From: a virus
Taxonomy: Duplodnaviria > Heunggongvirae > Uroviricota > Caudoviricetes
IMG/VR virus record: IMGVR_UViG_2700989507_000007
Span: 1-11,763 of that record
DNA: 11,763 nt
Reading direction: 5' to 3' (one strand)
In this document: in pieces, positions 2,396-6,403 of the stretch
Layout: each line of letters begins with the position of its first letter
How positions within the stretch are numbered: position 1 is the first letter of the stretch
Translations under genes and position numbers: made by a program
Notes under the pieces: model-generated
Seen by the model: the letters and a program-made list of their open reading frames with translations, nothing else
What the model was told of the DNA's origin: nothing
Databases searched by the model: none

Positions 2396-2437
2396 TGAAC
2401 CGCCCCGGTTTTCCTGGAGAGTGTTTTATCTGTGAAC

Positions 2438-3325
2438 TCAGGCTGCCAGATCATCGTTTCTGATGGAAGCATAATAAGCTTTTTCTGCTTCTGCCGGAGG
2501 GATATGACCCAGCCTTCCCAGCAATCGTCGATTGTTATACCAGTCCACCCACGTGAGTGTGGCCAGTTCCACTTCTGCACGGTTTTTCCAGCTCTTACGG
2601 TGTATTACCTCCGCTTTGTAAAGACCATTGATGCTCTCCGCCATCGCGTTGTCATACGAGTCACCTGTACTCCCTGTTGATGCCAGCAGTTTTGCTTCTT
2701 TTAGTCGCTCCGTATAGGCCAGTGATACATACTGAGAACCTTTATCACTGTGATGGACTGTGCCGGACGGCCGACGGGCCCACAACGCCTGCTCCAGTGC
2801 ATCCAGCACGAATGTCGTTTCCATAGACGATGAGACTCGCCACCCCACGATACATCCGGCAAACACATCAATGATGAACGCCACATAGACGAAGCCCTGC
2901 CATGTGCTGACGTAAGTAAAATCAGCCACCCACAGCTGGTCAGGACGTTCTGCCACGAACTGACGGTTTACGCGGTCGCCTGCGGAAACGGCTTTCCGGC
3001 TGACGGTAGTACGGACCTTTTTACCCCGGAGAACACCGGCAAGTCCCATAACCGCCATGAGGCGCGCCACTGTACATCTGGCCACCCTGATACCTTCGCG
3101 TAACAACTGGCGCCAGACTTTACGCACACCGTACACCTGATGATTTTCATCGTATACGCGCTGTATCTCTCTCTTCAGCCAGTCATCGCGCTGAGCACGG
3201 GCACTGCGTTTATCAGGATGATGTCGCTGTTGCTGACAGTGGTAATACGTTGACGGGGCAATATGCAGTTCACTGCATACCGGTCCGACCCCGTACTGCT
3301 CACGCAGCTTATCCAGCAGCGGCAT
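2438..3325 (-). CDS. IS3-family transposase OrfB (catalytic domain), 295 aa
   Basis: Track ORF 2438..3325 (-); its ATG overlaps the orfA stop in the -1 frame, the classic IS3 orfAB arrangement. Confidence 0.85.
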   Translation of the reverse strand: MPLLDKLREQYGVGPVCSELHIAPSTYYHCQQQRHHPDKRSARAQRDDWLKREIQRVYDENHQVYGVRKVWRQLLREGIRVARCTVARLMAVMGLAGVLRGKKVRTTVSRKAVSAGDRVNRQFVAERPDQLWVADFTYVSTWQGFVYVAFIIDVFAGCIVGWRVSSSMETTFVLDALEQALWARRPSGTVHHSDKGSQYVSLAYTERLKEAKLLASTGSTGDSYDNAMAESINGLYKAEVIHRKSWKNRAEVELATLTWVDWYNNRRLLGRLGHIPPAEAEKAYYASIRNDDLAA

Positions 3326-3651
3326 TATTTTTTCCAGAGGCGGTCGAACTCCGCCTTCGCAAAATAAGCGGAAGCCTGGCGAAGGATATCGTTACTGCGG
3401 CGCAGTTCACGATTTTCACGTTCCAGCTCTTTCAGACGCTGACGTTCAGCGGTGGTGAGTCCACCATCACCACTCCCGGTATCCCGCTCATGCTGACGAA
3501 CCCACACACGCAGAGTCTCTGGTGTACAGCCAATCTTTGGGGCAATGGAACAAATTGCCGCCCATTGTGAGTCATATTCGCCCTGACTTTCCAGAACCAT
3601 ACGAACTGCCCGTTGACGGACCTCGGGGGAAAAACGTGTATTTTTAGTCAT
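3325..3651 (-). CDS. IS3-family transposase OrfA (HTH plus leucine-zipper part), 108 aa
   Basis: Track ORF 3325..3651 (-), [19 protein letters not shown]...; ends at an A6 slippery run (plus-strand T6 at 3328-3333) where the -1 frameshift into orfB is expected. Confidence 0.85.
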
Positions 3652-3705
3652 CCTGTTTACCTCTTTCTCAGGGAGTTTAGTCTCCAGGATTCCCGGGGCG
3701 GTTCA

Positions 3706-4368: not shown

Positions 4369-4884
4369 ATGGCGTTAACACACCGCGAACTCTGTCAGAT
4401 TGCGTACAAGTTCCTTAAGCGCAACGGGTTCAAGGTTTGTTTTCATGACCGCTTTATAGCTGTAACCAGTACCGGAGAACAGCCAGATGCTATGGGATTC
4501 AGAAATTCAGCATCATGCCTGATAGAGGCGAAATGTTCTCGTGCTGACTTGTTGGCAGATAGAAAAAAGCGTTTTCGTAAAAATCCGTCTCTTGGAATGG
4601 GCGACTGGCGATTCTTTATTAGTGAGCCGGGAATTATTTCAATTGAGGATTTACCACCTGGCTGGGGATTACTTCACGTTGTTAACGGAAGAGTACGGAA
4701 AGTACATGGGTGGCCCAAGGGTAATTGCTGTTGGGGTAATCCTGACGATAAGCCATTTACTGGAAATAAGCAGGTTGAATGCGATTACATGTTGTCTGCA
4801 TTAAGGCGCATGGAGTTGAGAGGGCACCTTAATGAAATATATGACGGTGTAATTGTTAATAAGAAAGAAGGAAACGCGGCATGA
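4369..4884 (+). CDS. hypothetical phage protein, 171 aa; possible PD-(D/E)XK nuclease fold
   Basis: Track ORF 4339..4884; preferred ATG 4369 with GGAG upstream. Motif GEQPD-x13-EAK seen in the translation. Confidence 0.5.
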
Positions 4885-5225
4885 CCACTATTACCAGAGA
4901 GCAGTTAATAGCTCACGCAGAGGAGACTATTGAAGCACAGAGACTGTGTATACCGGGCACAATCGACCATGACATCATCCGCACATATAAGATGGATATT
5001 GCTGTTCTGGAAATCGCACTGGCATCGCTGGCAGCAGAGCCAGCCGGTAAATTGCATGAATACAAACCAGTGGGGTATCAGCGTCTGGTCGACGAGTTAA
5101 CTATGCAGGTAAAGCAGTTAGCCTGGCAACTGAGGAAAGCGAAGCCGGACTGCAAACTGCCGGATAAGGCGATGGACTACCTGGAGCGAAACGGACTGAC
5201 AAGCGTGGAGGATGTTTTACGATGA
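4881..5225 (+). CDS. hypothetical phage protein, 114 aa
   Basis: Track ORF 4881..5225; ATG overlaps the upstream stop (ATGA). Confidence 0.5.
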
Positions 5226-5305
5226 CCAGGCCTGAAGCATTCACAACGGTAGGAATTGCGATGGCGGTGGCGCTGGTGGTGTATTCGATTTGCCGCTGGG
5301 GATAA
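5222..5305 (+). CDS. possible small hydrophobic peptide, 27 aa ([27 protein letters not shown])
   Basis: Not in the track. ATG 5222 overlaps the upstream stop; one predicted membrane-spanning stretch. Weak support. Confidence 0.2.
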
Positions 5306-5315
5306 ATCGCCGAAA

Positions 5316-5349
5316 AAAGATCCCGACACAAACATGAGCCGGGATCTTT
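5316..5349. terminator. bidirectional rho-independent terminator between convergent transcription units
   Basis: 10-bp perfect stem AAAGATCCCG / CGGGATCTTT with a 14-nt loop; A-run upstream and T-rich tract downstream, so it carries a U-tract on either strand. Confidence 0.55.
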
Positions 5350-5432
5350 GATTTATATAGCCTACGAATCCGCCAGTAAGAGAGGGGGGGGCGGACGGTT
5401 AATTCTAACACCGGAATGATGTGGGTAAAAGT

Positions 5433-5732
5433 TTATAAGAAATCGGTTTCATAACTTTGCCCACCATGATAGATACCGACAATAAAGACTTTTCTGCCAT
5501 CAACGGCAAAAGCAATAATCGTTCTGTGGCGGAAATGAGTTACCCGCATCCCCTGGCGAATATCATCGCGTTTATTGCCCCGATGCGGGAATGTAGAAAA
5601 CCCATCAAGATAATCAAGAAGCGCATTGGCAAAATTGTCAGCAATGACGTTCCCTGCTTTCTCCGTTATATATCTGTGCAGGTTGATTATTTGTTCTTCG
5701 GCCTCAGGAGTAATGATGACTTCATATGTCAT
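5433..5732 (-). CDS. parE: ParE/RelE-family type II toxin, 99 aa
   Basis: Track ORF 5433..5732 (-); size and sequence character of ParE-like toxins; directly downstream of an RHH antitoxin gene on the same strand. Confidence 0.75.
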   Translation of the reverse strand: MTYEVIITPEAEEQIINLHRYITEKAGNVIADNFANALLDYLDGFSTFPHRGNKRDDIRQGMRVTHFRHRTIIAFAVDGRKVFIVGIYHGGQSYETDFL

Positions 5733-5737
5733 GCAGA

Positions 5738-5995
5738 TTACTTCCCGGATCGAATCGCGGCGCGAACCTGTGAAATGGAGCGTCCGTTGTTTGGGTTTTC
5801 GCGGATAGAATCAAGAGAGGGGGCGGCTGAATGCGTTAACCACGCTTCGATTGCTTTATCGCGCTCATTCAGTGCGCGAAGCCCTTCACGAATGACCTCG
5901 CTTTCTGAAGCATAGGCACCGGAAGCCACACGGGCGCGCACCATGTCAGCCATTTCGTTAGTTAATGTAATGCTGAATTGTTGGGTTGTACGCAT
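5738..5995 (-). CDS. parD: ParD-type (ribbon-helix-helix) antitoxin, ~85 aa
   Basis: Inside track ORF 5738..6058 (-); preferred start is the internal ATG (reverse complement of 5993-5995) with GAGG 6 nt upstream. Contains ASESEVIREGLRAL, typical of ParD/CopG antitoxins. Stop lies 5 nt before the parE start. Confidence 0.7.
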   Translation of the reverse strand: MRTTQQFSITLTNEMADMVRARVASGAYASESEVIREGLRALNERDKAIEAWLTHSAAPSLDSIRENPNNGRSISQVRAAIRSGK

Positions 5996-6130
5996 GGTAA
6001 ACCTCACGGAGTAGGATAGAACACCATTCGATGATAGCACGTTGCCTGTTGACGACAACAGAAATCAGAGACAATATTGCCGCACGCCAGCTTGAACAAC
6101 TGGCACCTGCTGCGCCAGCAGAGAAAACCG

Positions 6131-6403
6131 ATGGCGCACAATACCAAACATCACAATTCTGATATCGCCCCTGCCAGCAGGCAAGGGCGGTGTTCTCACA
6201 CATTCAAATATGACTGGTATCAGCACGATCCCTGCACTGAAGAACAGGCCGAATGGCTGATTCATAACTACCGCAGACGTGGGTATGAGTTTAAGAAAGC
6301 CCTTAGCCTCGACTACCGTCACTGGATAATCTACGTCAGGCTCCTTTATTCCGAACGCCCGCCGCGTCCGTCCCGCACATTCCAGCAACGCATCTGGAGG
6401 TAA
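6131..6403 (+). CDS. hypothetical protein, ~90 aa
   Basis: Inside track ORF 6077..6403; ends immediately before the DUF968 gene start. Weak RBS; coding status uncertain. Confidence 0.3.
   Translation: MAHNTKHHNSDIAPASRQGRCSHTFKYDWYQHDPCTEEQAEWLIHNYRRRGYEFKKALSLDYRHWIIYVRLLYSERPPRPSRTFQQRIWR

Follow-up and report, generated by a model that had tools for sequence, protein, structure and literature searches.

Taken together, the data make it likely that the DNA analysed here, a stretch of 11,763 nucleotides (the window), carries a complete and self-contained type II ParD/ParE cassette of ~774 bp, which is carried as a moron by a lambdoid prophage and most likely serves as a gyrase-poisoning addiction module. 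An E. coli lambdoid prophage makes up the window; the parDE pair lies in its early-right region, where it is transcribed against the phage operon. The cassette is made up as follows.

~5307 to 6080, minus strand: the whole mobile parDE cassette, ~774 bp, with edges that are mosaic breakpoints.
5996 to 6062, minus strand: conserved 5′ non-coding region with the predicted promoter, a probable ParD operator, the 5′ untranslated region (UTR) and the Shine–Dalgarno sequence GAGG, from blocks conserved in relatives.
6031 to 6058, minus strand: predicted sigma-70 promoter of parDE, consisting of TTGTCG, a 16-nt spacer and TATCAT preceded by TG (extended −10), from a consensus scan and conservation.
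5738 to 5995, minus strand: parD, encoding an antitoxin of 85 aa with an N-terminal ribbon-helix-helix (RHH) and a C-terminal toxin-binding tail, from PF03693, TIGR02606, PDB and PHROG matches and WP_001260977.1.
5433 to 5732, minus strand: gene of a ParE-type toxin of 99 aa, from PF05016, PDB profile matches, AlphaFold/Foldseek and WP_000220596.1.
5350 to 5432, minus strand: 3′ element of ~80 nt between the parE stop codon and the terminator, from scanning, folding and distribution.
5310 to 5349, minus strand: intrinsic terminator of parDE, with the stem at 5349–5316 and six U residues at 5315–5310, from folding, inverted repeat I1 and pairing in variants.

The list of open reading frames and the sequence itself agreed that the antitoxin gene comes first on the minus strand (parD, 5995–5738) and is followed by parE (5732–5433). 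Between the parD stop codon (5740–5738) and the parE ATG (5732) lie 5 nt, TCTGC. Small size, adjacency, common direction, close spacing and an upstream antitoxin are the arrangement of a toxin–antitoxin pair. The original prediction had called the two genes ParD and ParE and had placed them 5 nt apart. The spacing can be read directly in the window and was the same in all 53 full copies of the cassette examined, and the curated family scores, the PDB profile matches and the fold comparison all agreed on the identity. The same prediction had given the unit as 5316–5995; the features are present in that interval, but it stops at the parD start codon and leaves out the conserved promoter/operator region at 5996–~6080. 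In E. coli strain C325, which is 100% identical here, PGAP places coding sequences at exactly 5995–5738 (WP_001260977.1) and 5732–5433 (WP_000220596.1). PHROGs has its own families for both proteins, filed as moron toxin and antitoxin. The pair is an ordinary member of a well-known toxin–antitoxin family, already annotated in RefSeq and PHROGs and found here in a typical mobile-element context.

The antitoxin scored 31.6 bits against the ParD_antitoxin family PF03693 (curated cut-off 21) and 52.8 bits against the NCBIfam model TIGR02606 for ParD family antitoxins (cut-off 46.2), a family named after Caulobacter CC2985. Its N-terminal half aligned with the RHH in known ParD structures from Caulobacter (3KXE), Vibrio (7B22), Mesorhizobium (6X0A and 5CEG) and M. 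tuberculosis (8C24), identifying the product as a ParD-family antitoxin with an N-terminal RHH. Two start codons had to be weighed. The long minus-strand frame (5738–6058) encodes 106 aa from a TTG, and an in-frame ATG at 5995, with the Shine–Dalgarno sequence GAGG at 6005–6002, 6 nt before it, gives 85 aa. The shorter start, put forward earlier on the strength of its ribosome-binding site, was confirmed: it is the start used by PGAP, the PHROG antitoxin profile has 85 positions and matches ParD residues 1–85, and ParD has 85 aa in the Salmonella and Yersinia relatives and 88 aa in Enterobacter. Furthermore, the predicted promoter hexamer TTGTCG begins at 6058, and the TTG of the long frame therefore coincides with the first base of this −35-like hexamer. 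On these grounds the 106-aa product was rejected. When the E. coli and Salmonella proteins were compared, the first 47 residues of ParD (the DNA-binding half) and the non-coding sequence upstream of the gene were nearly invariant and the C-terminal half diverged in step with the toxin, a pattern that fits a division of labour between a DNA-binding N-terminus and a toxin-neutralising C-terminus.

The toxin scored 40.4 bits against the ParE_toxin family PF05016 (curated cut-off 23), and no NCBIfam toxin model matched it. ParE and RelE are not told apart by PF05016, a family in which one subcluster consists of mRNases, ribosome-dependent RNases included (PMC11980606). Because RelE-type RNases fall within the same family, the subfamily was checked separately. 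In the PDB, every chain matched by a profile built from 19 homologues was of ParE type (6X0A, 5CEG, 7YCS and 8C24), with no RelE, YoeB, HigB or YafQ among the matches up to E = 10, and hhalign gave a probability of 0.5% for the alignment of this profile with E. coli K-12 RelE. The AlphaFold model of the toxin (pLDDT 86.7) has a strand, two long helices forming an alpha-hairpin and three further strands, the last of which is followed by a disordered C-terminus and not by a helix. A Foldseek search of the PDB with this model returned 23 ParE-type chains at the top (query-normalised TM 0.72–0.83), including those of Mesorhizobium, P. aeruginosa, M. tuberculosis, V. cholerae, E. coli O157 ParE2, Caulobacter, PrpT and PfiT; RelE and YoeB ranked after them (TM 0.58–0.66). 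The protein thus has a ParE fold and groups with ParE and not with the RelE RNases. Identity to characterised ParE toxins is low (14–26%).

In the alternative, the toxin would act as a ribosome-dependent mRNA endonuclease of the RelE kind, and the pair, still a type II system, would stop translation. This view draws on the mixed composition of PF05016, with its mRNase subcluster, and on this low identity to proven gyrase-inhibiting ParE toxins. It appears quite unlikely given the PDB matches and the Foldseek ranking, the hhalign result, the lack of a C-terminal helix in the model and a partner that is an RHH antitoxin of the TIGR02606 ParD family. The protein can thus be placed with the gyrase-poisoning ParE toxins. 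Since the Pfam family also contains ribosome-dependent RNases, gyrase is the putative target solely by proximity in profile and fold.

We then asked whether the two genes look functional. With an E. coli variant of 87% identity over the region as reference, dN/dS was 0.21 for parD and 0.23 for parE and, as judged from these ratios of ~0.2, both genes are under purifying selection. The toxins of the Enterobacter, Salmonella and Yersinia relatives are 63–71% identical to that of the window, which retains the residues that are invariant among relatives, and these distant relatives are always paired with a ParD of 85–88 aa. Both reading frames were kept at 85 and 99 aa in 52 of the 53 full copies among the loci gathered, and the remaining copy has a frameshifted toxin. 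That single frameshift, together with the occurrence of parD without parE in Stx2a phages (below), is what could be cited for a decaying or domesticated remnant that has lost toxicity, with ParD, for example, kept only as a transcription factor. Such a reading is highly unlikely in view of the 52 copies that keep both full-length frames and the 5-nt junction, the low dN/dS of both genes and the invariant residues of the toxin. The data are instead in line with an intact toxin–antitoxin pair.

The region upstream of parD was conserved in four variants from E. coli and phage, and this conservation extends across a mosaic junction. The blocks TCGTCAA, TGCTA, AAT.GT.TT..ATCC and TGAGGT were invariant even in the relatives from Enterobacter, Salmonella and Yersinia, and the conserved region may well contain the ParD operator. 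The scan found five promoter-like sites in the region against 2.1 ± 1.7 expected, a number that is not significant alone. The palindrome TGTTGTCGTCAACA (6060–6047) was considered as the operator and set aside; because it is lost in the Enterobacter, Salmonella and Yersinia relatives, where only its TCGTCAA core is invariant, the exact operator was not pinned to it. On the plus strand, at 6049–6078, the invariant TCGTCAA block reads TTGACGA, a near-consensus −35 element, and AATATT follows 18 nt downstream at the cassette edge; in the ArgO145 and Stx2a contexts TATATT stands at the same spacing from TTGACGA. TTGACGA/AATATT may be a putative divergent promoter for the downstream phage genes, sharing the region that ParD would bind. 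In addition, PGAP annotates a hypothetical protein of 43 aa (WP_001342258.1) on the plus strand at 6031–6162, which overlaps the promoter region of parD as well as the beginning of the next gene. This reading frame is probably spurious and not a real gene, because in other contexts it leaves the conserved cassette and runs into non-homologous sequence.

At the other end of the cassette, AAAGAUCCCGGC pairs with GUCGGGAUCUUU on the minus strand through 12 base pairs, one of them G–U, at 5349–5316, and UUUUUU follows. In an 81-nt context the minus-strand hairpin folds at −28.9 kcal/mol (z = −3.2); the plus-strand version, with the tail UUUGAUUUAU, is weaker (−20.4 kcal/mol, z = −2.3). A G+C-rich hairpin directly before a U tract is the signature of an intrinsic (Rho-independent) terminator, and it is present here on the minus strand. 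Among 16 sequence variants, pairing was kept in 99.4% of cells, with one compensatory change from A–U to C–G and several one-sided changes from G–U to A–U or G–C; because the diversity of the variants is low, the support from covariation is modest. The hairpin is the one described earlier as a terminator with a 10-bp stem, with a stem that proves to be slightly longer. The consensus terminator scan did not flag it because of the loop rule of the scan. The weak sites that the scan did report, at 5511–5492 (inside parE) and 4888–4876, occurred at chance frequency and were disregarded.

Termination in both directions is plausible, and phage antitermination may override the terminator. The original prediction had the hairpin insulate the unit from the convergent upstream phage genes. 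A role as an insulator of the backbone did not hold, because prophages that carry hokD in the same slot lack the terminator; the element belongs to the mobile cassette, whose left edge is at ~5307. Early-right transcription has to read through the cassette in antisense, hairpin included, before it reaches Q, so any insulation would likely depend on the antitermination state of the phage.

The limits of the cassette were defined by comparison with related phages. In a prophage with the same flanks and hokD in the slot (L007), the match to the window breaks off after 5306 and resumes at 6081, and phage ArgO145 (L002) has 4877–6078 in common with the window and a different right flank. A search of 5426 complete E. 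coli genomes recovered the full unit in 324 (~6%), and it also occurs in Stx phages such as ArgO145, where it lies in a different region, near int. Relatives in Salmonella prophages are next to the Q antiterminator gene, those of Yersinia are in a tail module and those of Enterobacter in an integrase-linked island. These comparisons of sequence contexts show a cassette that is mobile between phage contexts.

The gene order of the window, read with the C325 annotation, is that of a lambdoid prophage: replication genes, ead/Ea22-like accessory genes, the cassette, a small hypothetical gene, DUF968, rusA, a Q-like antiterminator gene, a methyltransferase gene, tRNAs and a TerB-family gene. The antisense placement in a prophage, as first described, was thereby corroborated. 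The slot lies directly upstream of the small hypothetical gene, DUF968 (ydfU), rusA and Q. Elsewhere the same slot holds hokD (L007), hokD and phd-doc (L005) or, in K-12 Qin, relBE-hokD-rem upstream of ydfU. Because related prophages carry different toxin–antitoxin cassettes at this position, the slot is a hot spot for interchangeable cargo of this kind. Homologous slots were compared in L004, L005 and L007, and parDE is inverted.

To explain how the cassette might work, we relied on the characterised ParDE systems of RK2, Caulobacter (ParDE1), Vibrio (ParDE2) and M. tuberculosis (ParDE1), from which the steps are taken by analogy. ParD would dimerise through its N-terminal RHH and repress the promoter at ~6058–6031, and its C-terminal tail would wrap around ParE and neutralise it. 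If the prophage were lost, or host transcription shut off, synthesis of ParD would stop and the labile ParD would be degraded. Free ParE would then poison DNA gyrase, leading to DNA breaks, the SOS response and growth arrest. Accordingly worded, the most likely role would be that of a selfish addiction and stabilisation module in the toxin–antitoxin cargo slot of lambdoid prophages, with exclusion of other phages as a possible extra effect. The searchable literature yielded no experiments on exactly this pair, so we infer both the gyrase target and the biological role.

The main rival on the role is abortive infection or superinfection exclusion, in which an infecting phage, by shutting off host transcription, would let ParD decay, and ParE would arrest the infected cell before the phage could complete its cycle. 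What speaks for it is purely contextual: the pair belongs to the cargo of a prophage and lies at a variable site where further toxin–antitoxin modules are also found, and the antitoxins of Stx2a phages would make sense as a counter-measure. Many Stx2a phages have an orphan parD with the same promoter region and no parE. Its product has 86% aa identity to the ParD of the window, an identical N-terminal RHH and a dN/dS of 0.17. In one example, the Stx2a-converting phage LC727840.1 (L003), the orphan gene is at 3020–3277 and the locus is homologous to window 5719–6078; the homology runs from window 6078 to 5719 and ends 14 nt into parE. A small lipoprotein-like reading frame and a HigA-like antitoxin gene follow the orphan parD. 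The orphan ParD and HigA antitoxins of Stx2a phages have been reported before, with their role left open and the idea of a counter-measure raised (PMC12502783). The orphan ParD might neutralise the ParE of the window. No family in PADLOC-DB matched either protein at E ≤ 0.01, and a defence role is without support from this library because it has no defence-system model for either protein; nor was a published defence phenotype for the pair found in the literature searched. Exclusion as the primary role is possible but somewhat unlikely, and addiction is the preferred reading.

We also examined the stretch between the parE stop codon and the terminator. It contains an extended −10-like sequence, TGtTAGAAT, at 5410–5402 on the minus strand, and a stem-loop at 5396–5368 (GUCCGCC/GGCGGAU, 7 bp, with a 15-nt C/U-rich loop) followed by an A/U-rich spacer. 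Folding of 87 nt of the element including the terminator gave z = −4.35. The C-run of the loop varies from C5 to C8 among copies, and the window has C8. The element was found in 326 genomes, essentially those with the cassette, and among cassettes it belongs only to the E. coli form; in distant relatives, which lack it, the terminator follows the stop codon directly. Four of the 56 informative loci (L019, L023, L025 and L039) had it without parDE, with phd-doc instead. Three of these are identical over the compared region and the fourth is 96% identical; because all four represent one phd-doc recombinant lineage, they support independence of the element from parDE weakly. Rfam searches of the whole window, with permissive settings on 5150–6200, gave no family in the cassette and only a chance snoRNA match (E = 1.2), and a 19-nt string of the element retrieved nothing specific in the literature searched.

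The 3′ element may be an sRNA or merely a structure of the 3′ UTR. The sRNA reading would consist of an extended −10 promoter of its own, a seed in the C/U-rich loop, the A/U-rich spacer and an Hfq-type terminator, and such a unit may have survived the swap to phd-doc. A broader interpretation would combine a separate sRNA gene in the ~85-nt element (~5396–5310), a Stx2a orphan ParD acting as an anti-toxin against this ParE and a slot that is a site of prophage–prophage conflict; we regard this combination as unlikely.

Compared with known systems, the pair most resembles the canonical RHH ParDE modules (Caulobacter ParDE1, 3KXE; Mesorhizobium ParDE3, 5CEG and 6X0A; V. cholerae ParDE2, 7R5A; M. 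tuberculosis ParDE1, 8C24), which gave the best profile and fold matches and have the same antitoxin-first bicistron, an RHH ParD of 80–90 aa and a ParE fold of ~95–100 aa. It differs from them in toxin sequence (the 14–26% identity noted above), in its location in a lambdoid prophage and not on a plasmid, chromosome or superintegron, and in the extra structured ~80-nt element that the E. coli cassette has before the terminator. ParE-fold toxins are also carried on other prophages, in PaaR2-PaaA2-ParE2 of E. coli O157:H7 (5CW7, 5CZF), ParE_SO/CopA_SO of Shewanella CP4So and PfiT/PfiA of Pseudomonas Pf4 (9W3A), and 5CW7, 5CZF and 9W3A were among the Foldseek matches. PaaA2 is a short non-RHH antitoxin that works with a separate regulator, PaaR2, in a three-component system, whereas in the window a single RHH ParD supplies both functions. 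The CP4So pair is reported to maintain the excised prophage, and its antitoxin is named as CopA-type and not ParD-type (PMC8706911). Qin relBE-hokD and the hokD and phd-doc genes of other prophages occupy the same slot as parDE but belong to unrelated toxin families, and the cassettes of Qin and L005 run with the phage genes whereas parDE is inverted.

The parDE cassette alone matters little, being a long-recognised type of module in a modest fraction of E. coli genomes and in some Shiga-toxin phages. For STEC it could matter on two counts: a gyrase-poisoning toxin released in a lambdoid prophage would be expected to trigger SOS, by which such prophages and the production of Stx are induced, and many Stx2a phages keep only the matching antitoxin.

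Finally, the unit had been described as the only one on the minus strand of the prophage backbone. This is correct for protein-coding units of the backbone, but the window also has a minus-strand IS3 element and AgvB, both outside the backbone. These and a neighbouring RNA gene are located as follows.

2396 to 3702, minus strand: IS3-family element, with orfA at 3651–3325, orfB at 3325–2438 and an ALIL frameshift pseudoknot at 3370–3254.
11253 to 11314, minus strand: AgvB, an anti-GcvB sRNA, from Rfam.
11060 to 11252, plus strand: STnc100 sRNA, from Rfam.

The IS3-family element interrupts the accessory-gene region; C325, whose prophage is otherwise near-identical, lacks it. Two tRNA genes (10059–10288, Rfam) lie downstream of the methyltransferase gene.
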